A stretch of 64,000 nucleotides of DNA from positions 310,001-374,000 of the forward strand of contig BCKZ01000012.1 in NCBI GenBank assembly GCA_001600815.1, in the 5' to 3' direction. A program made the position numbers and the translations under genes. Positions within the stretch are counted from its first letter, which is position 1; every line of letters begins with the position of its first letter. Source of the stretch: Alloascoidea hylecoeti (taxonomy: Eukaryota). The notes beneath the pieces are model-generated. The model saw only the letters and a program-made list of their open reading frames with translations. It made no database searches and was not told the DNA's origin. This document shows positions 19,788 to 62,036 of the stretch, piece by piece.

Positions 19788-19932
19788 ACATAATACATAG
19801 CAATGGTTCCTAAAAGAGAAAGTAGGTTCACGCACGTTAACATAGATTGCATAAACGAAGTTCGTATCCATTTATTGGAAAAAGCCAAAATATTACTGAC
19901 AACTAGACAAAATCCATCTAAACAATTATAAT

Positions 19933-21114
19933 ATGTCCTTTCTCAAGAATATTCATAATACAACCGATTTTTTATCTGAAATAATCTTCTCAAACTTGCA
20001 ACTAAAAACGTCAGTCACTTGTAGAAGAGGTTCGAAATCATGGAAACAAATAGTTGAAGATAATGATATATGGAGACTAAAATTTCAAGATAAAAAATCT
20101 TGGAAATACTATAATGACAATTCAGAGACAGATTCCTAGTATGAATTATGTAAAGAACGTTATATTCTAAAATCAAATTGGAAAAATGATAAATTTACAC
20201 AACATATATTAAGAGGTCATTGCAAAAACAGAAAATTGTACAATAAGAATTTGGGATAATGAAACTTTTAAATGTTTAAGAGTTTTAGGCGAACCAACTC
20301 CTAAGATTTCAAGGCCAAAATTATCAGATATGGAAATATTGGAATTATCAAAAAATAAAGATATTAAATCTCATTTAGATGGTATTAGATGTATCGATAC
20401 TAATGATAAATATTTAGTTTCTGGTTCAGGGTATAATTTGGAAATTACCTGATTTTAAACCAATAGATCGTTTGATATTACCAAGACAAATAGGTGCTGA
20501 AGTATCATTAAGTGAGGTGGTAGATGTCACTTTATGCAACGATTACATTGTATGTTTAGTTAACCGTGGGTAAGTTATAATAAATTAAAACGGTCCAATT
20601 ACAGTTTAATTTACAACACCATTTAAAATTAAGACGTTCCTTTAGTAGTATTTGCATTTATAATAGGATTATATATGGTAGAGAATTATATGCTATAAAT
20701 AAGATCGTGGAATATTGAAACTGGTCATGAAATTAAAGAACTTCGTTATATTTCAAGCTTAAGTTGCATTACAGCAATGGATCGATACTTGTTTATTGCT
20801 GAATTATACAACGTAAGAGCTCTGGATTTACAAACTAATAAAGCAAAGATCTTACCTGATGAACTGGTGGTAGATGGATCACTTATAGCTAATGATAAAA
20901 TCATTTCTATTAATGAAGATATCACTATTAAGATTCGGAATTTAAATTATTCAAAAAATTTAAATTTTATTTAGAAGGTCGGAAATTGGTTTTAGGTTCT
21001 AATTGTTCAATTGGTTTTGATTCAAAAAATATATATGCTTTTACTGTGAATGGTGATGTGGTTATTTGTGATTTCACTGAAAATTTAAGGAAAAAATATT
21101 TAAAATATTTATAA
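19933..21114 (+). pseudogene. Decayed F-box/WD40-repeat protein gene
   Basis: F-box (…LSEIIFSNLQLKTSVTCRRGSKSWKQIVEDNDIW); in-frame TAG at 20137-20139 at a likely Trp; then LRGH, IRIWDNETFKCLRVL, SHLDGIRCIDTNDKYLVSGS and IIWKLPDF WD40 fragments spread over frames; ends GDVVICDFTENLRKKYLKYL*. Confidence 0.8.
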
Positions 21115-21855
21115 TCGATAATCTATTGAAAATTGAAAATAAGGCATTTCTTTTTAAAGAAATTTTAATTGAAATAATCATTTTAATAACTATTTATTGG
21201 TAATATATAAATCACAATTATTAGTTCGGGATACACTCTTTAAAGCCCAGTCTAAAATACTAATAGATACATACGTGAATAATATATTTATAACTGTGGA
21301 TCAAATTACTGAAGCTTAAGACACTAATTCTACTTTGTCATAATTATAGCTAAATTAATCATAATTTAATTAGAAAAAAAGAAACAAACATAAACAGTTC
21401 ATTTATAAATAAGTACACAACAAGCTTAAGTATAACAATTGTTCTTTCTCGTTGAATAGGGAATGCATTAATTATAAACTGTAGAAGCCGGTATACATTG
21501 TAATGTATATATAAATGTGTTGTATACCATAAATTAAAGTCAAAATTGGGAAGAATATGCGTATGGTGCTTCAGAAGAAGAAAAAGGTAAAATCTCATGA
21601 TCAAATCATTACACTCAAATTTTCTACTAACAAAAAATGATGTTCATAAAAACATAAAAGAGTCATTATTTATAAATAATTATTAATGATAATATCATTT
21701 TATAAGAAAAAGGGTAATTAAAAAGTTGCAAAAGGGATTCATAATTTCATATCCAATAATTCCATTAATATATTATTTTAACCAATTGCAATTTTTTTTT
21801 TTTTATTTCTTTTAATGAAATGTAAGACAAAACAAAAATGTTTCATTCTTGGATT

Positions 21856-24688: not shown

Positions 24689-26806
24689 TCATTTCTTAAT
24701 ACTTTCAGTTGGACTATTAGTGCTATCACCTTCTAATTCTTGACCATTAACTTCTTCAATAATTGATTTGCGACTCATATGCACATGTAACTCTTCGGGA
24801 TTTGACTCCTGCCAAGCTTTTAGTTTATAACTTTGACCAGTAACATCCCAATAAATACCTCTCAAAGTATTGTAAATCTCATATCGACCTTGCCATAATG
24901 GGAAAACATTAACAATTAAAGATGAAATAAAGATCCAGATAATTCCAACTACAACCCAACCTCTAAAAAATGGTTTTGAAAAAATATAACCGGAACCATA
25001 CATTGGCATTGGCCAAATAACTAAAAATGCAATTGCCATAAATGCAGTAATTATTCTTGCAACTTTGGCATACTTATCAAGCAATGCTTGTTCCTCTGGT
25101 GTATTCTCTGCTAATACGAATCCATGGCCTTCAACAACATCGTCAATCATTTGTTCTCCTTTTTCGCCATCATTTACACCAAAACCAGCTAATTCTTCAG
25201 TTTCATCTACTTTTGTAATCTTCTTTAATTCATTCCAATCAAATTTATATGGTTTGTATAATGAGATAAGTGGAGAGAAAACCATTGGTGATAATAATGC
25301 AACTACATTACCAATAAGCATTGGATAATCTGAACCAGTTGAAGCAATAGTGAATTCGTTAAATTCAACTTTTGTTCGTACTAACCAACCAATAATAGCA
25401 AAAATGAAACCAAGAATTGGAGAAATTGTAGCAGCCAATCTAGTTTGACGACGGGACATAATTGTCATAGCAGCTGGGAAAACAGCGCCAGAAATAATAA
25501 TTCCCATTAATACATACAAATAACCCATACTAACTCCCTTTTTCCATAATGCAATAGAAACGGCTGCCATCACAATACTAAAACCACAAATAGACATATG
25601 GGATATCCAAATCAATTGTTTACCAGTAGCCTTTGGGTTTATATATCCTTTATAAATATCATATGTGAAAACTGATGAAAAAGCAATAAACTCTGCTGAT
25701 GAAGCTGAAGTAACAGCCATGAAGACAAGTAACAGAGTACAAACACCACCACTTTTACCTAACAAGGCAATAGCAGCACTTGGTAATACAAGTCCAGAAG
25801 AAACTTCATCGGCAGATAGCCTATTAGGGTAAGTTGGAAATGCGGGATTGGATTCTAAGGCTAAGCAAGCTAAACCCATAGTTGTAGATGTTAAAAATGG
25901 AACGGCAAACCATGCAAGACCACCAAGCAAATAACCTGGTAAAGCAGCAACTGGACTTGCAGCTATAGCTTTATTCCAATAACCATTATCTAAGAAGACT
26001 GTTCCAAAATTACCCACGATATTAATGACGAAAAAGATACCACCAGCTTTTGATTTCATGGTTAAATATGAACCATCATGATTTCCAGTAACTGGATGAT
26101 CTTTACCAGCCTGAACTAAAAGATCATAAACCTTTCCAGGTGAACCCAGTTTATCACCTGCTGCATAAGTTGTCAAAGCAAAGATCATGATGATAACAAT
26201 TAAAACAACAGTATGTACATAATCAGTTAAAAATGTAGCTTTTAAACCACCAAAGACTGTATAAATAACAACAAACAAAGGTAAGAGCCAGATTGCAGCA
26301 ATTGTGTTCATACCAGTCACATCAGAAACAACAGCACTACCACCAGCCAACAACATTGCAGTGACCAAGAAGTTTGTTGCAACAGCAAAGAAGCAAAACA
26401 CTATGTGACAAGCAGCACCATATCTAACTTTGACAAGTTCTAAATAGGTATGAGCACCTGGAGCTTTTCTTTTCAATTCAATTGCTAAAGTTGCAAATAA
26501 AATAATCTGTACGGTTGCACCAGACGCATACCAAAAGGCACCAGATACACCATTTTTATAAGCTTGACCAGATGAGGTTAATAAAGTGGCAGCCCAAGTC
26601 CATGAAGATACAACTGCAGCTGCAATAAGACCACTCTTAACAGATCTACCAGCGGTCGCGAATTCTTCAGAAGTGATAATTTCTTTTTGGTATCTTCGTA
26701 GACCAGCTGTAACACCAATCATACCTAAGGCAAACAGAAATCCTAGGCCAATAACAACACCATATCCTACACCTTGAGACAAAATTCCAGCAACTGAGTC
26801 ACCCAT
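24689..26806 (-). CDS. DUR3: Urea/polyamine active transporter (sodium:solute symporter family)
   Basis: SEEFATAGRSVKSGLIAAAVVSSWTWAATLL, GGLKATFLTDYVHT, NIVGNFGTVFLDNGYWNKAIAASP. Confidence 0.96.
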   Translation of the reverse strand: MGDSVAGILSQGVGYGVVIGLGFLFALGMIGVTAGLRRYQKEIITSEEFATAGRSVKSGLIAAAVVSSWTWAATLLTSSGQAYKNGVSGAFWYASGATVQIILFATLAIELKRKAPGAHTYLELVKVRYGAACHIVFCFFAVATNFLVTAMLLAGGSAVVSDVTGMNTIAAIWLLPLFVVIYTVFGGLKATFLTDYVHTVVLIVIIMIFALTTYAAGDKLGSPGKVYDLLVQAGKDHPVTGNHDGSYLTMKSKAGGIFFVINIVGNFGTVFLDNGYWNKAIAASPVAALPGYLLGGLAWFAVPFLTSTTMGLACLALESNPAFPTYPNRLSADEVSSGLVLPSAAIALLGKSGGVCTLLLVFMAVTSASSAEFIAFSSVFTYDIYKGYINPKATGKQLIWISHMSICGFSIVMAAVSIALWKKGVSMGYLYVLMGIIISGAVFPAAMTIMSRRQTRLAATISPILGFIFAIIGWLVRTKVEFNEFTIASTGSDYPMLIGNVVALLSPMVFSPLISLYKPYKFDWNELKKITKVDETEELAGFGVNDGEKGEQMIDDVVEGHGFVLAENTPEEQALLDKYAKVARIITAFMAIAFLVIWPMPMYGSGYIFSKPFFRGWVVVGIIWIFISSLIVNVFPLWQGRYEIYNTLRGIYWDVTGQSYKLKAWQESNPEELHVHMSRKSIIEEVNGQELEGDSTNSPTESIKK

Positions 26807-26978: not shown

Positions 26979-29291
26979 CTTAATTATGCAGAATATAGCA
27001 TCCCACAGGTGGTGTTTAAGGACCGGGTAAATTAGTATTGTGAATAAAAAAAAGAAACTTACATTTGTCCGCATACGGGCCGACTATTTCATTTTCCTCA
27101 ACTTTAATAATTTTTATATCATAATATCATGTGGGCCGGTATGTTAGATACGGTACGATATTTCCAATGCTTATTCATATGATTCTCTCTTTTATATTTC
27201 GTTCCACCATTTAACAGTGTTGTAGGTGTGCTATGTACGTGTATTTAGCTAATTATCCCTCCTTAATTGAACCCAAGTCCCCTTTTGATCTGGTTGCGTT
27301 AACGTTTTATCCGATGGTACGTATAACCGACCCGCTCGGGCTCGGTATTGTATTACAAGAAAGCTTTTTTATTGGCTATGCGTCTATGATTGTCGATACT
27401 GTAATTTCTCTATCAATATTTTATTACATACTGTTTGAACTTCTGGAAGCGTCGTGTTTAGTTATGACTTCTAAGGATGATTAACCTCGAATCAAAGATC
27501 AATTGTAGTGCTAATTATAATAGCATAGATTCTATATTAAAATATACCACAGTATAACCCTAAAGCGCATTATAATGTGCAACAACAAAAAGCGACCTGC
27601 TGTAAGATATTACTCATGTGAATTATATCCATATAAAATAGGAATGATATGATATATTCCTTTCTTTGGCAATGCAAAGGAGCTGATCAACCCTATCCTA
27701 TCCTTATAATTAAATTTATTTATAACCCAATCCATTTTACTTGTAAGGATTTACTTATCTCAAGATTCTTAATTACTATAATTTTTCCTACTATAATTAC
27801 AATCATGAACTTTATGCAGGGATTTATATATATTACCGGTCAAAAAAACTGGTAATATTGTAATTATATGTTATAAGCACGCTGCATCCATCAGGATCCT
27901 GAAATGAGATAAGATCTTCATGTTCCAATTAATCTCAACTATTGGTTAGTTGTGCAGATGTCTGCACATTATCTCCAACTTGTTATATTTATTGTTTCAA
28001 TTATTTAACGCCGATGCATGAGAAAACAAATCTACTCTAAAATAGTTATAGAGATCTATAGACTTTGGTTATATATTATCATGATATCATTTGATTATTA
28101 AATATTATAGACGGCGAGAGATTCAATCCATCTATTTATTTCTTGTTTAACATATATATATATATATAAGTTAAAACAGATTACGAACTTATATATGTTA
28201 TGTCTAGGTTTCTTTTTCTATTTACATTTGGTTACAGTTAGAGTAATGATACAGAACGTTAATTATAAATGACTCGTTTAAACTTTAAATTTCATAAAGT
28301 CTTGATGTCGCTTCGATATGTTATGCTTAGAGAAAACTTTTGATCGCTTTAAGCCACCAATAGATCCACAACCAGTGAATAATACAATAGTATATTGAAA
28401 AATCGCTACTAATTGATATCTATTTCTATTTTACTTTTATAATATTAATTAATAAACGTCGAAAAAATAACACAATGCATAAAGTTCTTTAACTACATAT
28501 CAATGTTTTGGTGGTGTGAAGTCACTGTGGAGTCACCGTGAAGTGTGGACAAATTGAACACACACATTTTCAGTATAATTGGAATCTTGAAGAAGAATAA
28601 TTAACATCGCTGTCATACCTTTAGCTAAGTTTACTGATCGGTTCCTATAGCTATTTATTAACTTATAGGTTGTAATTGCTGGTAATTTCTAATGGATTTG
28701 TTAGCCATACATCTCTTTATCGGAAAATCTACACTGGGTTATTTACTTATAATCACGATTCATTAGCAGTGAAATCTTGTAGCTAGTATATAGCTACCGT
28801 ATCACATTATAATTACACTTATTTTGCTAATAAAATTCAAGCAAATAATTATAAAAAGGAAATGTTGAGTAGGATCTGCACTAGAATACATAAAAAGTAA
28901 AACATTTTTTTTTAAAATTCATTAACAAAATTATTTACTGTCTACATATAATATATAAATCTTTAATAAGATACAGGAGATTTCAGAAGTCTTTAGTGTC
29001 GTTCAGCAGGTGGAATTCGTCGTAAAGATCAAGGTACATGGTTTTCACAGTTTCCGTTTCTTACCCTCCAAATGTTTTCTTTTTTCCTCTATTTGAAGTT
29101 TTTCACGTTCTGCTTGGTTTTGTTTTTTCTTTAGTGTTTTAACAACTTCCGACATCTTTTTTTTATGGGTATCTTATCTTTTTTTCTTGGTCTGGTGTTA
29201 CTAGTTACCGATACTTTAATGCATTAAGGTTTCGGCCCAGGTAAATATACATCTCATAAATTATTGATTATGAATGATAATATCGGAAAAC

Positions 29292-29597
29292 TTATTCTTC
29301 TTCATATTCATCAGAATCATAAGTGTAAGATACAGACCTATTTTTATTACGAGTACTTCTTCTTGTTGCACTTTTCCTTTGATAAATGGATATCGATTGT
29401 TGTCTCTTCAATGGCATGGTTTTAGTAGAGACACCATTGTTTTCTTCTTTCGCTACAATTCTTTTCGTAACATTTAGAGCTCTTTTAGAGAAAGCTCTTG
29501 TCAATTTCTTTGAAATATATTCTTTAAATCGATCTAAAATCACATCTGGAATGAAATTTGTTGTTACTATTTATCACTAGCACTTTTTTCTTTTTTG
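29292..29597 (-). pseudogene. PDS5: Duplicated 3' fragment of PDS5
   Basis: About 300 bp closely matching 62095-62410 (FIPDVILDRFKEYISKKLTRAFSKRALNVTKRIV…YDSDEYEEE). Confidence 0.85.
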
Positions 29598-29713
29598 ATG
29601 CCATACTTCTATAGTGATTAATAATATCAGTCCGCACGTGATGCAAATAATTTACCCGTAATTTCGCAACATCCTAACAACTAACTTATACACATTTTCT
29701 TTTCTTTGCCACC

Positions 29714-31662
29714 ATGGAGACTATTACAGACAAATTCAAACAGTACAGCGATGAAATTGAGAAAACATTCAGTGAAAATAGGCATCAGCTATCCGAGGTN
29801 GACCCCAGCATTTTTTTTGGCGACCTTAGTAAGGAGGAAAATTTAAATGAGTTGAGAGCGCTTACTAAAGAAAGTATATTCTTCAATAGCAGTGCACTTG
29901 TATTACAAAACCTTCTGTGCAATTTACCCGTGACAGGTTTGTTTATAACTGGGTATAATAGTATGCCAAATATAGATAGATCAAGTGGTGCTGCTAGAAA
30001 GACTGGATCAAGTGGTGCTGTTAATGTTAATACTAGTTCCGAGATAAATCAAATGGGTGATTATTTTTACACAACTTCATTTATCAATGGTGAGACACTA
30101 AAATTCGAAGCAGAAAGTATTTAGTTAGAGACAGCATTATCGCAATTAGATGCCCCTAGAGTAAAAATGACAATGTGTATAATCTTGGGTGGTATATTGC
30201 GTGTCAAACTTGGCCCTCAAGAAAGATTTTCCGAAGCAGATATATCTCGTTTTATAAGTAATAAATTGCTTGATCCTGGTATTCGTTTTTTCAATAGAAT
30301 AACAGAATCTGGTTTAACTTTGCACGGAGAAAAACCTGGAAAGCTAATGATGGGAACTCGAAAAAGAAATGTATCAACGAGATCAGATTTTACTATTTCT
30401 AGTAAAAATAACCCTGATATTATCACTATTGAGATGAAAATACCTCAATTAGAAAAAATGGTGGGAGGTGTCAGTGGGTTTAACCCCGATGCTAAGTTTA
30501 AAGAAAAAGTTAATCAAGTTATTCAACAAGCACTCACACTCGACTTGGAACACCATTTGGTATTCTAAGTGATGGAGTCTTGATCTTTTTATTCGAAATA
30601 CCATTAGATACAGAATTGAAAGATTATGAGGCAAAAATACCTAATGAAGGATCTAAATATAAGGAACTACCAATCAATTACAAAGTTATAAGAGCTCGTG
30701 AAAACGGAGTTTTTTTAATATTTTTATTGTTTCTGAAAAAAGCAATTGACTTTTTCAATATTCACACTAGAGAAGAAGTAAAAGAAAAATTACAACATTT
30801 TGCGAATTGGTTAGAGAAATCGGTNGAAGAAACCATCATTGCTGAAACTGAATCTCGAGATAAGATGAAAGATTACTTTTTATNTTCTGAGGAATCTGAA
30901 AATGTAGACATCACACGGGATATGAATTTAAGGATAAAATTCAGTTCTTTTCAAGAAACAGATCGGATTCAGCTTTCCAAGCTTCCAGATGAACGTTATC
31001 ATTCACAGGTACTGCGTTGTTCATCACAGCAGTTTTATGAGGCGACTGATAGCAACTCTTTTAACCTTATAAGCGGACGTGAATATATTATTAAGTGGAT
31101 TGACCCGGTCCTTGCTGTTTGTAACAACAAAAGATTGATTAAGTTGGCTGAACCTTGTTACAATTATTACAAAGATGAACTACGAATCTACATGGTGTTA
31201 TCAGAAAAAACAAATTTAGAGGNCATAGTGCCTAAGCTTCATGGAATAGGTTTTTGTACCTTATTTGGTGATGATGGTGAGACCGTTAGTGCAGGACTAT
31301 TCCTGTTACTAGATTACATTGATGGTAANGAACCTGATTTTTCAGATGATAAAATATACGAAAAGGCAATGTCAAATTTGAAAAAGTTACACGATGCTGA
31401 CATAACTCATGGGGACATTAGACTCCCAAACATAAGGGTAACAGAGAAACAATATGTGTACTTTTTCGATTTTGGTTTAAGTAGCACAACTAAAGGAGAT
31501 AAAACAAGAATTACTGATATTAAAAGCAAAAGGGATGAGGAAAAATTATACCGACTCAGGGAAGAAGCATTAAAAGCAAAAGAATACTCAGCACCAATAA
31601 TACAAGAAAGGGAAGAAANAATGGGAGAGGAAGGAAGAAAAAGAAGAAGATTAAATCCATAA
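29714..31662 (+). pseudogene. Disrupted PD-(D/E)XK-like nuclease + protein-kinase-like fusion gene
   Basis: ORFs 29714 and 30167 share a frame, separated only by TAG at 30122-30124; one frameshift near 30545 joins ORF 30580. Motifs: RSDF…IITIEMK…NQVIQQA…FGILSDG (restriction-endonuclease fold), then IVPKLHG, LLLDYIDG, HGDIRLPNI and FFDFG (kinase). Confidence 0.75.
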
Positions 31663-32027
31663 CCATAATTTACTATTTTTTTTATGATTTTACTTTATGT
31701 TATTTTATTTTATGAATATTACATTATACCTTATATGAATTATAGATTATAATCTATAAACTTAATAGCTAGTCTAATTGCAAACTTCAAAAATCATTTT
31801 AAGACATAGAAAATGTACCGATTGCAAACTGATAAGAAGAACTTGAAATACCAAAGAAAAACACGAACTATTACTTTTGATATACCCAATAAACAATGAA
31901 AAGAAAATGAAGAAGAAGAATCAATTTATATAATAAATGACAATACATTTTTAAACAAGATTAAAATACTCTAATAAATTCAGAATTAATTATAGCCGCT
32001 TACAACTTCCTTATCTATATCTATATA

Positions 32028-34703
32028 CTATACCATATTATTGTTTTGAAGGGCAATGCTTTTCGTCATATTATTAACCTTATAGATCCCTACAAGTTGT
32101 TGTGCTAACTCGAACATATTATTTCTCAAAGAAATAACAACAAATTGAGCATTTTTGGTTCGTTCTTTAATATAATTTGCAACAATTGAAACATTTCGAA
32201 AATCCAAAGCAGCATCTATTTCATCCATTACATACAAAGGTGTGGGTTTATATTTATGAAGTGCAAAAACTAAGGCCAAAGAGCTAAGAGTTTTTTCACC
32301 GCCTGAAAGATTCGAAATATTTCTCCAACTTTTCTTTGGCGGCATCACACTAAAAAGAATTCCTTCTGAAAATGGGTCAAGACTGTCCACAAGCTCAAGT
32401 TCTGCGTTACCTCCCATTGTAATCATTTGATACATATTTTTGAGTGTAGTTGTGATTGTATTTAATCCAACCATGAATTCATCCAGCCTTCTCTTTTTAA
32501 GATCGTCACTCATTTTCTTGACCAATTCACGTTCTTCAACTGCTTCGTTCAAGTCTGTTTTACGAGACACAAATTCTCTAGAACGTCTAGCATACTCTTC
32601 TAACACTGAAATATCAACAGTTTCTTCTAGCTTTTCCTCTAGCCGTTTTATTTCGGATTTTAAGGTACTGGCATTTATTTGATCGAGCTCATCTAAAGAT
32701 ATTTCTAGTGATGCTTGAGGTGAAGAACTTTCTTCAGTGTCCATCATAACATCCTCATCTTCATTCTGAATACTTGTTTCTTGGACGTTACCAATTAGTT
32801 CATCTAAATTATGAAGTTTCAAAGACTCGAATTGACTTTTATAGTGATGAATGGCGCGCTTGTAATCTTTCATATTAGTCACATGTTGTTCGATTTTATT
32901 TTCAATCTCAATTTCGCTAGATCTCAATTCGGCAATNAGCTTCTTTTCAGATTCCAATTTATCTTTTGCAGACTCAAGTGCTTCTTTTCTATCATCACGT
33001 TCATCTAGAATTTTAGAATACTCTTTCTCTAACAGAGCTGCCTTTTGAAATTTCTCTTCCACACTTTGTTCCATTTTTAACAATTGGTTATCAAGGGCAA
33101 CAACTTCCTTTTCATTTTCTGAAAAGATTTTAGTATGTTTCTTTAATTCATTTTGGTTCTTGGTATATGTGACAACCTCACTAGACATTTTNTCGTTAAG
33201 CAATTCTAGATGTTGTTGAATACTATCAACTTTTGACTTCTGCATTCTAAGTTTGATACCACCAACTTTCATAATTTTTTCTTCTAGCTCCTTGATTTTG
33301 TTATCCCTATCTTCGGTTTCTTCTTTTAGTTTTTCAAGCTCATGTTCTAATGCAGAAACTTTGGCCTCTGCCTCTTGAATGGCTTTATCATCTACTAAAT
33401 TTGTTTTAGCTTCTTCTTTAAATTCCTTGGTTTGTTTTTGAGCGGCTGATAATGATTTAGCTAAAGAATCAATTTCAATATTAATTTTGGAGGCGGATAA
33501 TTCAATTTCAGGCTGTCTATCTTTTAAGAAATTTAGCGCTTTAATCATTTTGTTGTACGTTTCAGTAGCTTTATCAAACAATTCTTGTTTCTCTTGGAGT
33601 TCTTGTTCAAGTTGAGATACAGCCTCCTCAGAAAACCCAGAATTTGACTTTTTGTTCATGGCACCTGAAATTTTTTGAGCACCACCGGATAAAGTACCTG
33701 ATTTATCAATCAATTTACCATCCAAACTAACAACCCTCCAANGTTTCGCGCCATAAGCAATACGGTTTGCTTGCTGTAAATCTTTAGCCACCAATGTATC
33801 CTGCAAAACGCTGTAAAATGCTGGAGCAAATGCAGGGTCTTTTGGAGTTACCAAGTCAAAAAGTCGTGGAACACCTTCAGGGGTATTAATTGGACCTAAA
33901 TTTCTTTTTGGTAACTTATCGAGTAAGATAAATCTTGATCGACCTAAATTGTTCTTTCTTAGATAATCGATACATTTTTGACCAACATCCACAGTATCAA
34001 NAACCATATTATTCAATGCAGGACAAGCTGTTGAAATAGCTACATCATATTTATCATCAATTGTGCCTAAATCGCCAAGTCTACCATTGAAGCCATCCAA
34101 TCTTCCAGATGCTTTAAGATGAGACAAACCAGCCAAAACTTGATTTCTTGTTTTTGTATTTGTAAGGGGTCCTTTAGCTTCATTTGTTTTCTGTCTAGAT
34201 TCGGTCAATTCAGTCTTTAATTCTTTCAACTTAGCATTCGCGTGTGAACATTCATTATTACCAAGATCAATTTGATTTTTGTTATGTTCGAATTCTTTCT
34301 TCAAAGCCNCAAGTTCACGTTCTTTACTTCTTCCTTGCTTCATGGTATCTTGTTCTACAGCTAGAGATTCATTTATATTATTAATGAGCGAATCTTTTTT
34401 TTCTTTTAACATATCAACATTGCTTTGAGAGACAGCTACTTCTGAAGACTTTTGTGTGATTTTTTCTCTCCATGGTTCACCTTCTTTAACCAGCTTATCA
34501 ATTTGAAGGGTTATATCCTTAGTTTTGTCCTTCAAGCTATTTCTAATTTCCTCAAGCTCTTGCTTTTCGACCTCAAAGTTTTTTATGAGGTCTTGGATTT
34601 CTTGTTTAACTTGATTTGTTTCTGTTTCTTGATTTTTCAAATAAGAACTTGCTTCATTAATAATCTTCTGTGAAGCATCCATGTTCTCCACATAATTTAC
34701 CAT
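32028..34703 (-). CDS. SMC4: Condensin subunit Smc4, 5'-truncated (coiled coil, hinge and C-terminal head half only)
   Basis: Hinge GRLGDLGTIDDKYDVAISTACP; signature LSGGEKTLSSLALVFALH; Walker B YVMDEIDAALDFRNVSIV; no Walker A/N-terminal exon seen upstream. Confidence 0.85.
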   Translation of the reverse strand: MVNYVENMDASQKIINEASSYLKNQETETNQVKQEIQDLIKNFEVEKQELEEIRNSLKDKTKDITLQIDKLVKEGEPWREKITQKSSEVAVSQSNVDMLKEKKDSLINNINESLAVEQDTMKQGRSKERELXALKKEFEHNKNQIDLGNNECSHANAKLKELKTELTESRQKTNEAKGPLTNTKTRNQVLAGLSHLKASGRLDGFNGRLGDLGTIDDKYDVAISTACPALNNMVXDTVDVGQKCIDYLRKNNLGRSRFILLDKLPKRNLGPINTPEGVPRLFDLVTPKDPAFAPAFYSVLQDTLVAKDLQQANRIAYGAKXWRVVSLDGKLIDKSGTLSGGAQKISGAMNKKSNSGFSEEAVSQLEQELQEKQELFDKATETYNKMIKALNFLKDRQPEIELSASKINIEIDSLAKSLSAAQKQTKEFKEEAKTNLVDDKAIQEAEAKVSALEHELEKLKEETEDRDNKIKELEEKIMKVGGIKLRMQKSKVDSIQQHLELLNXKMSSEVVTYTKNQNELKKHTKIFSENEKEVVALDNQLLKMEQSVEEKFQKAALLEKEYSKILDERDDRKEALESAKDKLESEKKXIAELRSSEIEIENKIEQHVTNMKDYKRAIHHYKSQFESLKLHNLDELIGNVQETSIQNEDEDVMMDTEESSSPQASLEISLDELDQINASTLKSEIKRLEEKLEETVDISVLEEYARRSREFVSRKTDLNEAVEERELVKKMSDDLKKRRLDEFMVGLNTITTTLKNMYQMITMGGNAELELVDSLDPFSEGILFSVMPPKKSWRNISNLSGGEKTLSSLALVFALHKYKPTPLYVMDEIDAALDFRNVSIVANYIKERTKNAQFVVISLRNNMFELAQQLVGIYKVNNMTKSIALQNNNMV

Positions 34704-35890
34704 TTCCACAATTTCATCAATGTTAATTAGAATAGGCACTATTTTTCAAATACTTTCACACATAGGTTGGCTCTAAAAGATGGCCCATGCAAGTAGTCTA
34801 TTAAAATGTGCGTTTTTCATGGCTCTGGAACATCTAAGAAGTAGCGCCGATGGGTGTCATAGATGAGAAGCCAGCTCTTCAGAAATCGAATATTCTTCCA
34901 CAAAATCAGCCAACCACTTCATATTTCGTTTCTCAGTTTCTTTCGTGAGTCATGTATTGTGCAATATACGTATTTTCAATCGGTTTAATTGTGCTTTTTT
35001 AAAACGAGAGGGTATGTTTTTGGAGATTAATTAGAGGTTTAAACACTTATCATATTTCAGCTACCTGGATATATAGATACATAATTTCTGACCAGGGCGA
35101 CGTTTCTTTCTCATGATGTATTAGTTCAGTTATGAAGTATGGTACCAAAAAACATTCGGAATTGGGTTTTTAGGTAGTGGCTCCAAGTAATAAAGTGGTG
35201 TGTATGATGCAAATTGTTATACAGAAGGAACTAATATTGTAACTGTTTTACCTGTGGTTATCAAGACAATAATCAGAACTGTTTAATTCATGCACTTCAG
35301 TTTTGAGTCCGTGTAATGGGAGTTTTCCAATTTTCGCTATTTCTTTTGTTTTTACATTTTCAATACTTATATTAAATGGGGGTAAGGACTATAGAGGTGC
35401 TATCAAATGATATATAAAAGCAATTTTCACCATTAGGTACCGGTATAAGTCTAAAGTATGAGAACTATTAAGGCATCTTACTTTACAACAATCCAGTGAA
35501 CCCACCCACAATAGTTAATTTCTTTGTATGTTTTTAGTTTAGTTATAGCTTGTTTTGTGGATTCCATAATATTTGTCGAGGAATTCCCATATTTTATATA
35601 TACATGTAGAAGTATCGTAAAGATATATATATTTGTTTTCCAAGAGTTTTAGAGCAATTACGTGTTTAAAGAAGGACATCAATCTGATCATGAGTGAATC
35701 AACTGCCCAAATTAGTCAACATATTCAACATGGTATCCGGTACTGTAAACAGTAATAATGGAAAAGCAATCTATGATGGAACCGCTGGACATGCAATTCC
35801 TTCTATAGTATTTCTTTCTTAATGTGAATTTAACTATTAGATTCTCTTATAGTTCTAATTAGTATTAAATGCTCTAGTATTAATTGTAAA

Positions 35891-37006
35891 TCAATTATCC
35901 TTTTTGAGTACTTTCTCTTGCCTTAACCCCGATTCAAATCGTATCCCAAGTCCAATATTGGCAGAATTATTCTTATGATCCAGTTCTCCACAAAACAAAA
36001 AGCGTCCTGTCCCAGAGACTTTTGTCTCAAAAAATACACCAACTTTACCTTTTGAATCTATTTGTGTCTTTAACAAGGATTGTCGAAAGTCATACCTTGC
36101 AGCGATGCTTGTTTTTCCTTTTGAAATTATATCATAATAAATAGGTTGTCCTTCAACTAGACCTGGACCTTCTGCAACAACTGTTTTAATCTCACCAGCC
36201 AAATTTGTTTCTACTCCCGCGCCAAAATTTTCCGACACTTTTTTCCAGAAAGTCATTGTCATTTCCCCATGATCTCTAATTTGTGTAGTAGCAACCCAAT
36301 TGTCTTTGGTATATCTACTAATATATGTACATGTCGTACATGTTTTATGTGAGTTGTAAATTGAGGAATTTAATAGGGACTCCGTGGTCAACTCTGAAGG
36401 TGACAGTGAATTTATTGTCGTAATTGTTTCCAGACCAACTGACCATCTTGAAGTTAACAACTGAAAGTATGACCCCGATATGGCACCTGTAATCGCATTA
36501 TTTATCCATTGAATATTTAGTAACTTTATATTCAAAGAAACGTGAGATCTATTAATTTCATGCTGGAATAGCCATAATAACTGTTGGTTTTGTGAAAGGT
36601 TCACTTTTAGCTTACTGGAATTATACTTATTCCCACAGCTGATAAATCCAGTATATTTTAATTCTTTAAAAGTAGAAATATTTCCATGTAATTGAATTTT
36701 ATCATTCGAATAAGAGGTATGAAATATATAAGGTAAACTATAGCTAGATGGATATTTTGAGTCAATTGAAAAACAATGTGTGGTTTGAAATATGGGATTT
36801 AACCCGAAAACATGAGTTAATTCAGCTCTAAGTCCAGTAAATAAGTTGTGATCTATGAAGAGATGTTGCGAAACATTATTTATGTGATCTAATGAGCCCA
36901 ATGTTAGCTGTTTTATTCTTATATTGCCAATTGAATGCAATTGATTGTTATGATCTATATCGGTTAGAAGATTTATCCCAGACTGTTGTTTTCTGGAGAA
37001 ATTCAT
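35891..37006 (-). CDS. TOM40: Divergent Tom40-like outer-membrane beta-barrel
   Basis: LFTGLRAELTHVFGLNPIFQTTHCFSI, FWKKVSENFGAGVET, ARYDFRQSLLKTQIDSKGKVGVF and LFCGELDH…IGLGIRFE align in order with Tom40 motifs, with many substitutions. Confidence 0.8.
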   Translation of the reverse strand: MNFSRKQQSGINLLTDIDHNNQLHSIGNIRIKQLTLGSLDHINNVSQHLFIDHNLFTGLRAELTHVFGLNPIFQTTHCFSIDSKYPSSYSLPYIFHTSYSNDKIQLHGNISTFKELKYTGFISCGNKYNSSKLKVNLSQNQQLLWLFQHEINRSHVSLNIKLLNIQWINNAITGAISGSYFQLLTSRWSVGLETITTINSLSPSELTTESLLNSSIYNSHKTCTTCTYISRYTKDNWVATTQIRDHGEMTMTFWKKVSENFGAGVETNLAGEIKTVVAEGPGLVEGQPIYYDIISKGKTSIAARYDFRQSLLKTQIDSKGKVGVFFETKVSGTGRFLFCGELDHKNNSANIGLGIRFESGLRQEKVLKKDN

Positions 37007-37329
37007 AATTGTAGAAGGTTGCTAACTTGCTTTATCATCTAAAAATATTAAGTTGTATGCACAACACCACTGTAATACTTAGTTGGGAAAATCTAAACTA
37101 TGTCATAGGACCTCCGAAAACAAAACCAATTTTTTAAATATATACCATAACAACTCACTGGATTTCCACTTTGTGAGATTTCACGTAATTGTGATTCTAA
37201 GAAATTACTACTGACTTAGCTAATTGAGGTATGTAGTATCAATAAACATGACCTCTCAATTATTGAAATAGGTATATTGCACCTTTAACTGTGTAGTTCA
37301 CTGCAAATAAATAGGTCAACGACCTTTCT

Positions 37330-37660
37330 GACATGAAGTCTGGATCTCTAAGATTATTATTATGGACTAAAATTTGGAAAGGAAGTAGTAATCCATTGTA
37401 TAGAGTGATTCAATGGGGATCCTAATAGCAGGAAAATAGGAGCCACCGTTCATACATAGAATTTTTGTAAGAGGCATTTGATTAGATTGATGAGGGTGCC
37501 ATATTCAAGCTGGATAGGGCATCTATCTATAAAGCTAAAATCACAATGAATTGGTTTCGTGAGAAGAAGATAGGCCGTCGGAGTGACCACCTTCTCCAGA
37601 CCTGAATCTAATTGAGGGCATTTGGAATATTCTCATAAAAGTTCATGGCAGGAATTACGA
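37330..37660 (+). mobile_element. Tc1/mariner DDE transposase relic
   Basis: 37501 onward: IFKLDRASIYKAKITMNWF…E*PP-SPDLNLIEGIWNILIK, a decayed FQQDNAPxH…WPPxSPDLNPIExxW motif. Confidence 0.8.
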
Positions 37661-38186
37661 ATATGATTCCATTATATTGTAAAGGTGAAGAAATCCCTTT
37701 CAAAATTAGTTAGCCGATTCTCTTCATCCACTAATGTAGATTGCCCACTATTTATTCGACCTTCGAAAGTTAAACGGGTTAACCCGGCCTCGCTTGCACC
37801 TGTCAGATTGAGGTATTATGATCAAGAAGGTTTATTGCCATGACTTTTCGTATCCTCACTTCCTTGTCTCTTGATATAAAAGCTCTGGGGGATCTTTCAA
37901 AACCATCGTTGGTGGTTGTAGAGTATATAATGAAAAAAAAACTACCGGTTCTATGCTTTTCAGAAGGGTTGACAAGATCCCTGTTCCTGCTCAGATCGTT
38001 GGTTCTTATCGTTATTTCTCCTCTTTCCACATGTTTACATAATATAAATAGACTTAAATATCCCTTAATAATAGATTCATTTAATTCATAACAACTCCCA
38101 ATTTAAACTCACCTCTTTACTAAAGTCGGTTAAGCCAACTAAGTTTCATTCATTTGATAAAACAAAAATTATAATTAAAGAATAAG

Positions 38187-38963
38187 ATGAGTGTCTCAAC
38201 ACGTATTTCTATTCAATGGCTCCCAGAAAATGCTTCAGAGCCAACAGAAACTTTTGTAGTCTCTTCCCGGGGTGGTCATTTCGTGGATATTCGGAATCTT
38301 CGAGATACTTTAGGACAACAATATGCTAATTTCCATTATGATTGGGCTATTAGTGGGCACGATGAGGTTCTAGGCATAGATCCAACTACCAAATTATTGA
38401 GTATCAAATTTCATCATGAATTGGATTCGAAGTATATTGTTGCGAAATCTCAATCTTTGAATGATCCGAGCATTACGGACGACAAGTTAGAACAGTTAAC
38501 AGCACCAGACGTCGGTCACTTCAAGACTCTAGAGAATGGCGATAGACATGAATCTGGAGAGATGATGAATGCTGATACTGGGAAGATTACTCCATATATT
38601 GAAATTTGGAGATCTTTGGATGCTTTGACATCAACACCTAAGAATCTCATCAGGGAGACGGAAGATAATCTGCCCAAAGCCAAATCGATTGTTTTTGTTC
38701 CAGTAGATGAATCAAGACATAAAGGTAAACTGGTAAGATTCGGGAACTGGATACAGGCCCTAATCACAGATGAGTCAAAAGGAGTACAACCAGACAATAT
38801 CAATCTCACTGTTCTACGAGCAGTGTTGAATGAGGGAAATCACTGGGTGACATATAATAGCTTTGGAGATCATTTGGACCAATTTCCTTTGAATTTCGAA
38901 GGAGCAGAAGGGGAAACATTTACTTTTGGTGGAGTTGAATGGAAAGTTATTGAAAATTCATAA
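38187..38963 (+). CDS. HRI1: Hri1 family protein
   Basis: STRISIQWLPENASEPT…GHFVDIR…DWAISG…E.G.M.N..TG.ITPYIEIWRSLD…R.GNWIQ. Confidence 0.85.
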   Translation: MSVSTRISIQWLPENASEPTETFVVSSRGGHFVDIRNLRDTLGQQYANFHYDWAISGHDEVLGIDPTTKLLSIKFHHELDSKYIVAKSQSLNDPSITDDKLEQLTAPDVGHFKTLENGDRHESGEMMNADTGKITPYIEIWRSLDALTSTPKNLIRETEDNLPKAKSIVFVPVDESRHKGKLVRFGNWIQALITDESKGVQPDNINLTVLRAVLNEGNHWVTYNSFGDHLDQFPLNFEGAEGETFTFGGVEWKVIENS

Positions 38964-39281
38964 CATTCATGGTACAATTATTTTTCTAGTTATAAACATA
39001 GACTATATCTGTAAGTATATCTAATAATAAGAAGAATAAGGAAATGCGTTAAGTTTGTATACTATGTGTATAGTTAAACAAACAAAACTGCTAATAAAAA
39101 ACACACACACATGTCTATTTATCCTTTAGCTGGTTAAACCATTTTAATGTTACCCGGATTGTCAGCCATTATCCGATGCAGCACGTGATATATATTACTG
39201 CATGCAATTGAAATTGTCTTACAATTTGATTTGATCACCTCCAAATTTAAACCTATCTTATAATTATAGCCTAGTTTCGAA

Positions 39282-39963
39282 ATGAATGGAACAGATACTA
39301 TGTATGTTATTGCTTTTACATGGAATATAAAGTGTAGCTGAGCTAACATTTTCCCTCTATAAATCAGTATATTTCTATTCGCAGTATTGGGAAACTTCTT
39401 TAATTTGTTTGCCAATGTATTTTTCATAGTGAACTACACTGATCTGGGTATGTGATAATTGATAGCGATGAAATCCTATTTAACTAACATGAACAAAATC
39501 TAGAAACTGGTAAGCTCGGCGATGGTGATTTAACATTTTACTTAACCCGCTAAATATTTAACTAATCAAAACTAGATTACACAAATCCCATCGACATGTG
39601 TAACACCATCAATAGAGTATGTATGCTTTTTATAATAGCTGTGATTTTGGTTTCCCTGAAACTCAGAGTACTGACATTACATATAACTAGCTTATCCTTC
39701 CCGATATAATCGTTCAAGCCTTTATCTCTGTTATGCTCCTTCTCAATGCTCACTACTACAGATTCTTATTAGGGTTGCCTTTGGTCTTATGGAATGCTTA
39801 CTCTATAATACAAGACAGACATTTATTAGACCCAACAAATATTTTTCGAACATTAAGGTCACATAAGATTGAAAGTATGGCTAAACTTATTTATCATTTC
39901 GTTTTATTTTTTGCTTATCTTTATGGATTAGTTAGCGCACTTGTCGAAGGTCTCGGAGAATAA
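39282..39963 (+). CDS. ERV14: Cornichon-family ER cargo receptor (Erv14/Erv15-like), 5 exons including a 6-nt microexon
   Basis: Spliced product MNGTDTIIFLFAVLGNFFNLFANVFFIVNYTDLETDYTNPIDMCNTINRLILPD…LLDPTNIFRTLRSHKIESMAKLIYH; all introns GT-AG. Confidence 0.85.
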
Positions 39964-52846: not shown

Positions 52847-55800
52847 TTACATTACACTAACAACAGAGGTGCCGTCCTGGAACCTTGCTCTGAATACTTT
52901 ATTTGCATTAGAGAAGAAACCTTCCTTTAAGCTGACAACAATAAATTGTGAGCCTTTAAATCTGGTCTTGATAATATGACCAATATTTTGGGTATGACTT
53001 AAATCAAGAGCAGCATCAACTTCATCTAGAATATACATTGGAGCTGGCTTGAACTGTAAAAGAGCCAATATTAATGATAAAGCAATTAAAGATCTTTGTC
53101 CACCACTAAGTTCCACAAGACTTTCTTTCCAAACTTTACCAAGCATTACTTTAACTTCAAGACCTTCCGTGACATCCATCCCTTCAGGAGGAACCAATTT
53201 GGCGAAACTTCCTGGAAGCAGATCAGCAAAAATGTTACCAAAGTCTTTTGACACTTTTTCCCACGTTTTCATCAATGTTTTCCGCTTGTAATCATTAAGT
53301 GTTTCTATGGTTTCTTCTATCTTCTTCTTATCCTTCTCAATTGTTCGGATCATACCCTTTAAAGAAANTTCTTTCTTCTCGACATTGTCAATCATATTCA
53401 TTACCTTTGGATTTACTTTCCTTTTCATACCTTGAAATTGGTCAGATAATTGATGGTACCTACTTCTGCAATCGTCTAAATTGATATTAGGATGCGATTC
53501 AATAACATTTGAAACAGATTGTTCGTCTGAAAGCCATTCATTATTAGAGATCAATGCCTCAACCCGTTTATTTAACGATTCTGTCTCATCTTTCTTTTTA
53601 CTAACTTCATGGCGTAACTTTTGTGATTCCAATTTCTTTTCGTTCATAAGATTTTCCTTCTTTGATAATAAAGTTTCCAATTCCTTTAACTCTGAATTGA
53701 TTCCCAACAATTTGGATCTTTCCTCTTCAAGCAAGGTATGAACTTCAACTTCTTTATTATGAATTTGTTGTAATCTTTGAGTACGCTCCTTGCATTCTTC
53801 TGCTAATTCTGTAATCGAAGCGGTTATTTCTTCAAGTTTTTCTTTAGCAGCTGATAAATCACCTCCTAAACTCTCCCATTCAATCTGTAAAGTTTGATAT
53901 TCAACTTGTTTTTGGCTTGCAAATTTAGTGGCCTTACTGATATGTTTTTCTAATTGTTCAACTTCTTTCTGTAATTCCTTTAGTTTTTTTCCTTTATCAC
54001 TATTAAGTTCATTCATATCTTGCTCAATTTTTTGAATGCTTTGTTGGCAATTCTTGAAAACTTCTTGTTGTTCTGAAATTTGCTTTTGAAGTTGTTCAAT
54101 GTTTTCTANCCTTTCTCCATACTTCTTTAAAATACTAGCTGAAGGGCTTTTTTCTAAAGTTTGTTCGGCTAATTTTATCGAGTGAGCTGTGAGATCAAAT
54201 TCTTGTTGTAAAGCTTTCATTTTTTCAGCAAGAACTATTTCTTCTTCTATCTCATAAGCTAAAGCTTTGAGTTGTTGTTTCAATTTTTGATGCTCGCTAT
54301 TGATTTGATTTAATTCTTGAAGTGTAACAAGTACACCGCTAGATTGAGGCTTACTACCACCAGATAGTGTACCTGAGGGGTCATAATAATCACCTTCGAC
54401 AGTTACACTTGGAAGTCTAACATTAGGATTAAATGTGACTTTTTTAGCGGTTTCTGAATCTGCACAAATTAAAGTACGACCAAAAATAAATTGCATAGCA
54501 GATGAGACATCTTCATTAAAAACAATCAAATTTAGCGCTGACTCGACATTATTACCACCAATCATTTTTGCATTTTTAACAGCTTCTTTTGCATTAGAGG
54601 TGACAATTTTATCCAAAGGAATAATTGTCACTCTCTTCTTTAGGTTACCATGCTGTAAAATCTTAGAAGCATTAGAAGCTGTATCAATCACAATATTAAA
54701 TAATCTTCCACCAGCACACACTTCTAAAGCGGTTGCAAATGGATAGTTTTTTTCCTCCAACCCAAATAGTTGAGCGGCAACACCTTTAACGGACGACGAA
54801 TCAAAGTTTGGAGCTGGTTTAGAATAAGTGAAGTCAAGGTTAGAAACTCGTCTCTTAAGATTATCTGCTTGATGTTCTAAATCACGAATTTGATTTTCAA
54901 GTTTTACGTATTCTTTCTTTAATTCAGGTAATCTTTTAGAATTGAATCCCGAACTTTCCAATTGTTTTTCTAATTTCGAATGCTTAACCTTTAACGTTTC
55001 AATTTCTCGAATTGTTGCTTGGTTTTCTTTTTCTGATTTTTTAATCTTTGGTTTATCTTTCTCAATTTCACTTCTAAGATACTCGGATTTCATCCTAGCT
55101 TGTTCTTCTGAAACCTTAGCTTGAGAAGCTTTACCTTTTTGTTCTTCTAGTTGTGCCATATACCCACCATTTGTAGCACCAGAAGATGAAATACCAGTTT
55201 TTAATAAATTTAAAAGCTCTTCCTTTCGGGAATGCTCTTCTTTCATTTCAGTCAACGCACTTTTGCTATCGTTGTATTGTTTTTCTGATTTTTCGTATAT
55301 ATTCAACTTTTCAGCAATATCTTTTTCTAATTTAGCGATGGTTGCAATAGAACTTGCTTCCTGTGATTTAGCCTCGTCAATACTTGTCTTTCTAAGTTCT
55401 AATGTTGTAGTTAATCTCGCACTTTCGTTTGCTAATTCAGTTTCGCGATTTTCAAGAGCTTGCATTTTACCACCTTTTTTTAATTCTTTCTCTTTTTCAG
55501 CTTTCGCTTTCTCAAGATCCTCTTTCAGATTTGTAATTTCTGTGTTAAATTTATTNACTTCANTCTCTAACGATACTAAAAGATCTTGTTTTGCTGTGAA
55601 GTTTTCATTGAACTTGCTAAGTGTTTGATAAGCATTATAATAATCATGGGCAGCGATAATTCTAGACAATTGCTCCAAATCAGATTGGGTTTTTTGAAAT
55701 TCAATAAAGACTCGTTTTTCGCTTCTCAATTTATCCAACTTTGGTTCTATTTCTTCCTCTAATAAAGTTCTAATTTCTGTTAACTTGGTTTCCTTTTTAG

Positions 55801-56414
55801 TCATTGTTTTCTTAGCCTTTTCTTTACGATCTTCAAACATTCTAGTTCCTGCTGCTTCTTCGATAAGGCCCAAAATTTGGCTTGGCTTCATATTAAGAAC
55901 TTGGGTGATTTTACCTTGCATAATCAAGAAATTCGGATTGTTAATATTAAGTTGAACAGATTGGAATAAATGAAGAACAGTTTGCTGCTGGGCACGATGA
56001 CCATTGATTAAGTATTTACTAGTACCACCCATTAGAACCTAATAAAACAAGTTAGATGCTTTCAAAAGGGGGTTGATTTGAGATATTATACATTACCTGT
56101 CTTGTAATACTGATCTTTGGATATTGTTCAAATCCAATCGGACTTGTCTTCTTCTCACTGTTATCAAAGACAATGGTTACACTGGCCTTTGTGACACCAG
56201 CTTGTCCTCGTTTATAGATCAGATCCTGTAAACTTTGAGCTCTCACCAAACTCATTGATGTTATCCCTAAAACGAAACAGATTGCATCCAGAATATTTGA
56301 TTTTCCAGATCCATTGAGGCCTGTGATGGCATTGAACTGACTATCCCATCCAGAGATGACTGTTCGAGTGGCATAAGATTTGAAGCCGTCTATAATAAGT
56401 TCTTCGACTTTCAT
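52847..56414 (-). CDS. SMC2: Condensin subunit Smc2, 2 exons
   Basis: [15 protein letters not shown]…[13 protein letters not shown]alker A; intron about 56039-56096; [22 protein letters not shown]. Confidence 0.97.
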
Positions 56415-61206: not shown

Positions 61207-62036
61207 TTTGAAGAAAGTGATAGAATTTCGATCGTAGAAGTTGGGGAGATTAACGCTTGTTAAAAGTGGTTGTACTATACTAGAAAAAGAATTGAGGATA
61301 AGAAAACAACGCTAGATGGGAATTGACGTGGGTTTATATATCATTCAAATTATTACTCTCCAATTCTTTCAGCAACACCGCCGTAGTAAACTTATAATTA
61401 ATATTCAACTGTAACGTTAACATTGTTACATAAACTGAGATCTGAAACCTTTTATAAACTAAATCTACAGATTCGTAACTCACATGTACTATTTATGGTA
61501 TTTATATGCTGTTCTTTTCTATTAAACGCCTTCCCAAGCCATAATATCTATATAGATAGGTGCACCATATACCAGGGTACTTTCAATGTATTCATAGGGC
61601 TGAAGCAATATCTGATCTAAACTTCCGAATGATGTAAGCCCAGGGAATATGAAATCTTTCTTTTATAACTCTTTTTTATGATGTAAGTTTAGTATGTAGC
61701 TCAGAGCGGGTAAAAAGTAAAAGAAGTCGTCCGTCATTCTCAATCCTTTTTTTTTTCTAATAAGTTGGTTGTTCCTTTCTGTTGTTGATTTTTTGTAATT
61801 AATATAATATATGCCATGTTTTTTTTGAATCTTTGAATTTGAATTTCATTCTTCATAATTACTTCTTCAATGGTGGTAATTTATATTTATATTGATATGG
61901 ATATGTAACTATTACTACAGTATGGTAGAGTTGCAGCGAGAATACAGATCTACAGAGAGAGTCAATCAATTACCAACATCATAATACAAGTTAACAAAAA
62001 CAAGTTTATTGCAATTGCCGCTTCTATAATATATTA

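Follow-up and report, generated by a model that had tools for sequence, protein, structure and literature searches.

A circularly permuted insertion around a broken nuclease-kinase gene in Alloascoidea hylecoeti and its likely arrival as a DNA circle

Introduction

How did broken pieces of two SMC-complex genes, PDS5 and SMC4, come to flank a broken nuclease-kinase gene in the genome of Alloascoidea hylecoeti? The locus lies in a window of 64,000 nt (C12:310001-374000; assembly GCA_001600815.1, contig BCKZ01000012.1), the whole stretch analysed here, for which an initial annotation had listed a PDS5 3' fragment, a gene of the nuclease-kinase family (NK; predicted nuclease plus kinase), a tail-to-tail SMC4, a TOM40-like gene and a Tc1-like relic between a DUR3-type transporter and HRI1. 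All pieces were present in this order and both neighbours were confirmed. With HRI1, a DUR3-type transporter and few introns, the gene content suggests a budding yeast. In this study, we found that the segment 29037-34683 (5647 bp) duplicates DNA from other parts of the genome in circularly rearranged form and was inserted recently. Its sequence makes it probable, though far from certain, that this unit came as a 5.6-kb DNA circle bearing a broken member of a likely selfish, Spok-like family, with the PDS5 and SMC4 pieces as likely passengers. Positions without a scaffold name are window coordinates, while C1, C9, C12 and so on denote scaffolds of the searched genome (24.8 Mb, 136 scaffolds).

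Results

Both outer ends of the unit consist of SMC4 DNA (Table 1). In the donor SMC4 at C12:440938-441709, window 34033-34683 continues straight into 29037-29156, the two pieces being contiguous at C12:441585-441588. In full-length SMC4, the codons at the left end (protein match to SMC4 residues 401-443) stand directly before those at the right end, which makes the unit circularly permuted. The donor contains the tetranucleotide CATG once, whereas the insertion has it at each end, at 29037-29040 inside the left SMC4 piece and at 34680-34683, the end of the right one. The right piece shows 3 substitutions in 650 columns against C12:440938-441588 and 0 in 1083 against C31. Once the insertion is taken out, the two flanks form one alignment over CATG to old repeat copies at C27:51-435 (70%) and C9:659761-660106 (72%), so that the empty target site is recoverable and the flanks rejoin to one repeat. 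The chance of two independent ends meeting within 4 bases is about 1-2 in 1000 per event. The simplest reading of these junctions would be a 5647-bp circle that was closed at 29156/29161, opened in SMC4 and joined to its target via the 4-base match. The left edge, initially placed at 29270, therefore moves to 29037, taking in two stretches that had been missed, SMC4 over 120 bp (29037-29156) and a foreign flank of 130 bp (29161-29290).

Near-identical DNA was present in sequencing runs from one organism and from wood-decay metagenomes, three studies in total, and contigs from these runs (X1, X3, X4, X5) were compared over window 30885-39500. In X3, X4 and X5 the native donor continuation is seen as a loose end at 34683. 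In agreement with the initial annotation, no terminal repeats were found at the unit ends and no transposase frame inside the unit, the Tc1 relic lying outside it. The ends differ among copies, and fixed termini as expected of a transposon with cargo (Tc1/mariner, Starship, Helitron) were not observed. Retro-copying of NK or SMC4 was ruled out, as there is no poly(A) at the ends.

Two more insertions in the genome are circularly permuted likewise. C9:839991-849108, which has an 8-kb gap in its middle, starts and ends at the window-equivalent SMC4 position 33695, where its ends overlap by 1 base, and it shows a target repeat of 6-7 bases. The second, C31:107286-114348, corresponds to C26:184021-191005 after closure at an 8-base microhomology and opening at a 2-base overlap, and its circle junction is found again at C31:1-631. 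Junction overlaps at the three permuted insertions are 4, 1 and 2 bases, in addition to the 8-base circle junction. The earlier suggestion of a mobile or duplication-prone, cargo-carrying cassette is thereby borne out, and a route through a circular intermediate can be read from the junctions.

The PDS5 fragment links the unit to further NK copies. From full-length PDS5 (C12:30737-34636) it differs by 14 substitutions in 298 columns; it is frameshifted and shares a 33-bp deletion with the copies at C25 and C12:372k. A genome self-search, in which all 20 PDS5 candidates were scored, gave 22 non-self matches, 21 of which lie within 5 kb of NK DNA, with the remaining one at a scaffold start. Other NK copies thus do carry PDS5 or SMC4 pieces, a point that the initial annotation had proposed to check. 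The dispersed PDS5 pieces diverge from the full-length gene by about 2-12% (substitutions), a spread which indicates that capture continued over time, and they start at scattered positions along it (31075, 31774, 32741, 33061, 34200-34233, 34323, 34430-34444). The full-length locus itself is now without NK or an NK cluster. In the older copies C5:1028k, C25:4k and C25:224k, NK stands tail-to-tail with the PDS5 flank across a continuous spacer. At window 31984, equivalent to C12:35154, this arrangement is broken: NK abuts the SMC4 tail, and the PDS5 flank abuts a decayed SMC4 head (96-98% identical). One rearrangement would account for both joins, namely a ~400-kb inversion duplicating SMC4 at its breakpoints. 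An element terminus at 31984, where run X3 has a loose end, was ruled out, because a paralog with 37% identity (C25:224k) has a spacer that continues past this point, leaving a breakpoint only.

The 3.9-kb PDS5 duplicate at the right end of the window lies 4.9 kb from the intact NK copy described below, an apparent inversion separating the two; SMC2 (52847-56414) is 5 kb from this duplicate. Scaffold C24 has the same 317 bp at its start and end, beside an NK copy with PDS5 DNA, and is either a repeat-bounded region or an assembly loop.

The SMC4 frame at 32028-34703 is open for 891 codons, matches Pfam SMC_hinge and SMC_N and runs tail-to-tail with NK; the truncated piece has neither promoter nor N-terminal ATPase lobe. 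A 354-bp deletion (33143-33498) is present in the majority of SMC4 copies. In X3, X4 and X5, the NK flank and the SMC4 tail lie together on single, unbranched contigs, and the data suggest that all SMC4 3' ends, the working one included, now abut NK DNA. Relative to HRI1, contig depth was ~6.2 (X1), 8.3 (X3) and 7.1 (X4) for the SMC4 tail and 8.3, 9.7 and 9.1 for NK, with the restriction that depth is not copy number and that X1 may be the source of the assembly. An SMC4 depth of ~6-8 times HRI1 fits the ~7 assembled or implied SMC4-tail copies, so a free circle is not needed to explain it. Gap sizes in the scaffolds are too inconsistent for counting copies.

Two SMC4 heads with promoter, 99.8% identical, were located at C15:652919-654761 and C12:441240-443619. 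As assembled, the C12 head contains a stop behind codon 558, the C15 head is an open frame running off the scaffold end, and no whole SMC4 was found in the assembly. One gapped SMC4 copy has a stop that is absent from the majority contig; contigs drop single-copy variants. A split SMC4, with its head at C12:441k and its tail in the window, was rejected, since the second open head at C15 permits a whole gene in unassembled DNA. In keeping with the proposed inversion, the SMC4 copy at C12:443k adjoins an actin-related gene; SMC4 and ARP6 are adjacent in S. cerevisiae.

Beyond the PDS5-linked lineage, none of the 24 examined NK loci of other subfamilies appears in the PDS5 and SMC4 match lists, and two loci of the lineage itself (C5:717k, C25:247-252k) are likewise without either gene. 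The cargo thus reflects the position of the source gene rather than a choice of segregation genes, and the PDS5 and SMC4 pieces are likely passengers from the source gene's neighbours, first PDS5 and later SMC4. Other NK cargo comprises a PQ-loop gene and part of a zinc-cluster gene. At C22:22766-28419 an NK relic from a different subfamily faces an SMC5-like gene tail-to-tail, with 0.8 kb between the relic and the stop of that gene, and no captured SMC5 DNA was found at this relic.

The NK gene of the window begins with an ATG at 29714, 115 bp from the PDS5 breakpoint, but is no longer intact: it has a premature stop (30122-30124) as well as a frameshift near 30540, and a 265-aa kinase-side frame is still open. 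An intact 647-aa copy 40 kb away (C12:380419-382362) differs from it by 18 substitutions in 1936 columns. Counted by the kinase half, for which all 64 candidates were scored, the genome holds 44 matches; three weak ones (C3:859k, C1:1452k, C4:1348k) lie outside the set of loci looked at closely. Full frames of 626-660 aa are kept in several subfamilies at 27-39% identity to the window type. Natural half-genes occur as well: a C5 copy ends before the kinase, and a C25 copy is without part of the nuclease, its kinase in frame.

In an alignment of 17 NK proteins, to which residue numbers refer, E174, E240 and K242 are nearly invariant in the N-terminal half (E..D/E..ExK pattern), which is predicted to be a PD-(D/E)XK nuclease. 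In the kinase half, K459, E487, N571 and D584 are invariant, and the K/E/HxDxxxxN/DF motifs are kept. Pfam Pkinase matched 16 of 17 members at E up to 1 (best 2.4e-10; window gene 5e-5), the matches for the window type falling below the curated cut-off. The cysteine cluster that precedes the kinase in Spok proteins (C-x3-C-x13-C-x5-H-x7-H) is absent in 17/17, and no Crinkler family, which would supply the header domain, was among the 21 Pfam families matched by the 17 members (E up to 1). For an NK copy of this genome the Atlas search ranked a SPOK2_N cluster first with a score of 0.85; for the D. hansenii relative, SPOK2_N and Crinkler-kinase (PF20147 + kinase) clusters reached 0.93. A full phmmer scan returned 38 homologues at E up to 0.001, and word-index searches gave one close relative or generic kinases. 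Related uncharacterised proteins are DEHA2D12650p and DEHA2D12672p of Debaryomyces hansenii and those of Priceomyces carsonii. By architecture NK appears Spok-like, and lacking the cysteine cluster it is not classed as Spok.

Within codons 150-250, the predicted nuclease core, the per-site ratio of replacement to silent differences (pN/pS) exceeds 1 in all six computable pairs of intact copies, and the seventh pair has 7 replacements and 0 silent changes; kinase pN/pS is 0.30-0.70 in 7/7 pairs. Pooling three disjoint pairs gives replacement:silent counts of 58:6 for codons 150-250 versus 96:42 for the kinase (P 0.0012), while the two subfamily-C pairs alone are not significant (P 0.12, 0.17). 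Ambiguous bases cluster in codons 150-250 in two of nine copies (24/25 and 12/19).

Table 1. Features of the inserted unit and its surroundings (window coordinates).
Feature	Position	Strand	Evidence
Left part of old dispersed repeat, split by the insertion	28978-29036		joined flanks align with C27:51-435 and C9:659761-660106
SMC4, 120 bp, ~codons 403-443; left end of the opened circle	29037-29156	-	0 substitutions, one 1-base gap vs C12:441585-441705
Putative circle-closing junction, T run, mid-SMC4 to NK upstream flank	29157-29160		switch from SMC4 donor to C26/C12:382k/C31:109k flank
Host flank from earlier site, upstream of PQ-loop gene (C26:187.8k)	29161-29290		common to C26:187769-187829, C12:382887, C31:109265
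PDS5 3' coding fragment, decayed, without stop codon	29291-29598	-	vs full-length PDS5 C12:30737-34636
NK upstream remnant, likely promoter	29599-29713	+	matches C12:435262-435338 (86%) and C11 junction
Broken NK gene, predicted PD-(D/E)XK domain + kinase	29714-31662	+	vs intact 647-aa copy C12:380419-382362
NK 3' flank, former NK-PDS5 spacer	31663-31984	+	spacer runs on into PDS5 flank in C12:380k, C25:4k, C5:1028k, C25:224k
SMC4, ~codon 441 to stop + 43 bp, without N-terminal ATPase lobe	31985-34683	-	vs C12:440938-441588 and C31
Right part of interrupted old repeat, outside the unit	34684-34999		67-81% matches on C9, C14, C23, C27, C12:434k
TOM40 paralog, divergent, intact, single-copy	35891-37006	-	Porin_3 E 4.5e-37; one other genome match (C19:441.6k)
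Tc1/mariner-like relic, decayed	37335-37698	+	dispersed matches 69-76%; DDE_3 E 0.003, below cut-off
3' part of 3.9-kb frameshifted PDS5 duplicate	61739-64000, on to C12:375493	-	59 substitutions / 3442 columns + many indels vs full-length PDS5

The sequence to the right of the unit, with the decayed stretch, the TOM40-like gene and the Tc1 relic, belongs to the resident DNA, and the gene and the relic are old. Both were rejected as cargo, as they lie outside the CATG ends at single-copy depth. The TOM40-like protein is 33% (blastp) or 37% (another search) identical to the other TOM40, and its open 371-codon frame at 33% identity suggests that the paralog is still under selection. The single island extending to 37700 consequently dissolves into a unit that ends at 34683 and residents of different age and copy number. 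Further to the left, the DUR3-type gene (24689-26806) has an intact paralog with 86% DNA identity at C7:15280-17696, and ~19870-21200 belongs to a dispersed repeat family of ~1.2 kb with dozens of copies at 65-70% identity.

Discussion

We propose a model in which the source NK gene would long have stood tail-to-tail with PDS5 and shed copies with PDS5 flank, until a break in the NK-PDS5 spacer, probably the 400-kb inversion duplicating SMC4, placed it tail-to-tail with SMC4. Arms may have been exchanged between copies by ectopic recombination, a circle would have closed between mid-SMC4 and the NK upstream flank, and this circle would have integrated by end-joining at a 4-base microhomology. 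Free circles, end-joining, inversion and arm swapping are the steps that we infer here. Such circles would be made by ordinary break repair, with no transposase involved. By analogy with Spok, NK-bearing circles would probably be retained since an intact NK would combine poison (nuclease) and antidote (kinase) in one protein, and new nuclease variants could escape old resistance.

Several points weigh against this model. Most young copies sit in scaffold gaps whose sizes are off the model by 1-4 kb, and the NK content of the C9 insertion is assumed, not read, as it falls into the gap. The comparison with the runs covers 30885-39500, and the contig that crosses the right junction extends into SMC4 for 30 letters, one below the bridging rule, and comes from a run that is possibly the source of the assembly. 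Two further copies, that of the PQ-loop flank at C12:382.8-384.4k and that of the SMC4 head at C15, resemble simple linear duplications, so that circles are not the sole route. On the protein side, the nuclease call consists of motifs and weak HSDR_N matches (3 of 8 nuclease-region pieces, best E 0.0024), PDB sequence searches returned no solved nuclease, only generic kinases and spurious designed repeat proteins, and the Atlas score for the genome's own copy is a lead only. The codon window 150-250 was picked after the alignment had been seen, and gene conversion could contribute to the pN/pS signal or even mimic it.

In Spok genes of Podospora (PMC6660238, PMC9972908), as predicted for NK, a weakly HsdR-like PD-(D/E)XK domain stands ahead of a kinase, and both form multi-copy, diverging families with pseudogenes and changing positions. 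HsdR was the best template for the SPOK nuclease, and in Spok the nuclease kills while the kinase protects (PMC6660238). Spoks move in a 74-167-kb block, whereas NK would move in units of a few kb, and NK differs by the missing cysteine cluster (0/17). The pairing of a restriction endonuclease (REase) with a kinase is a common class of CR/Crinkler proteins (PMC5289972), with the nuclease regarded as toxin and the kinase as its regulator; unlike these, NK has no Crinkler header domain by Pfam in 17/17 members. A Crinkler-like selfish gene spreading with flanking transposons has been described in fish (PMC12957317).

The main rival, which we regard as unlikely, holds that the family mobilises itself: the NK nuclease would cut near its own gene and at targets, free circles, open insertion sites and so act as a transposase-free cargo carrier. 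All three permuted insertions hold NK or NK-linked SMC4, and the four inversions we infer break at the NK start, spacer or cargo (C12:435262/439569, C12:371739/379899, C31:631/67364, C12:35154/SMC4). Flanks are shuffled in distant subfamilies too, where a piece downstream of NK at C7 is upstream at C23/C28 and a direct repeat lies around C4:146.6-149.1k, and kinase-inactive SPOK1 damages DNA in yeast (PMC9972908). However, no common motif was found at the three circle-opening points, and no fixed element end exists, 31984 being a breakpoint. One opening point borders a 121-bp palindrome made of Tc1-like coding DNA (C26:189669-189789), with a folding z of -8.0 compared to -1.2 and +0.4 at the other two, which is likely a generic fragile site.

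Quite improbable in our view is a purely neutral amplification, in which a repair-prone genome makes circles generally, or this circle has an origin from which it replicates, NK being a mere bystander. A precedent is region B of wine Saccharomyces cerevisiae (PMC3053389), with which our locus shares dispersed permuted copies, 2-4-base microhomologies and the absence of terminal repeats or transposase. Region B, with permuted copies, 2-3-base microhomologies and a functional autonomously replicating sequence (ARS), speaks for this reading, and other duplications are present here as well (the DUR3 paralog, the SMC4 head at C15). Region B, however, is one foreign 17-kb circle with a tested ARS, amplified via extrachromosomal circular DNA (eccDNA), whereas we would have several native circles in series, with new cargo per step, centred on one NK gene. 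Against neutrality stand the constancy of NK while the cargo varies, the full frames kept by diverged subfamilies and the fast change in the predicted nuclease core. In addition, 39.7 kb of flanking window DNA gave no long match of at least 90% among the 39 of 78 and 39 of 157 candidates scored, a weak control that did not return self-matches.

The idea of a segregation-distortion locus, raised by the initial annotation, would imply that selection acts on the PDS5 and SMC4 fragments, for instance as dominant-negative toxin partners. Twice in succession the source gene had an SMC-complex gene as its neighbour, the SMC4 frame is uninterrupted, and the C22 relic lies near an SMC5-like tail. Yet the NK copy here is broken, the PDS5 piece frameshifted, the SMC4 piece without promoter and N-terminal ATPase lobe, with a 354-bp deletion in most copies, and all 24 loci of other subfamilies lack such cargo; chance would place an SMC-family gene next to one of 24 loci about 1 in 7 times (a rough figure, with ~20 such genes in 6000). 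The distortion claim therefore has no support at this locus, the SMC-complex pieces being explained by source-gene position, and we consider it very unlikely.

A homing element of the WHO type aimed at the PDS5 3' end deserves hardly any credence: WHO at FBA1 (PMC7282813) is likewise a budding-yeast case of nuclease genes and pseudogenes interspersed with 3' fragments from a single essential gene, but its nuclease is of another class (intein-like with zinc finger), and it has a fixed cut site and tandem clusters at its target, both absent here, where PDS5 fragments begin at many positions, copies are dispersed and full-length PDS5 has no NK. An assembly chimera of collapsed repeats, suggested by the many sister copies bordering scaffold gaps and by the stop in one gapped SMC4 copy that the majority contig lacks, is scarcely tenable for a gap-free unit whose flanks restore an old repeat to the base and whose NK-SMC4 join lies inside single contigs in X3, X4 and X5.

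Returning to arrival on a circle, permuted copies joined at microhomologies are already known from region B and from human circle-derived segmental duplications (PMC7450558). The latter share the A-B to B-A order change and microhomology junctions, but each is one large event, and no recurring gene family is linked to them. New would be the pairing with a Spok-like family and the serial circles; in the open-access literature we found no report of the NK family, of a nuclease-kinase/PDS5-SMC4 pairing, or of a Spok-like family moving on serial circles in budding yeasts. A bolder version, tentative and in its entirety rather doubtful, would make NK the budding-yeast counterpart of Spok and its own vehicle at once: lacking a transposase and fixed ends, it would break nearby DNA, leave on circles together with its neighbours, rejoin by end-joining, rise in frequency through drive as poison and antidote and run an arms race in the nuclease core that gives new specificities, and would now reside at the tail of SMC4, an essential gene.

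The window's own NK copy is a dead passenger, and the finding lies in the family and its route of spread. The locus offers a base-level record of a gene family that would move by serial DNA circles, its cargo changing at each stop, and such circles may be a route of gene capture without transposase. With relatives in D. hansenii and Priceomyces carsonii, putative Spok-like selfish genes in budding yeasts become testable in laboratory yeast.

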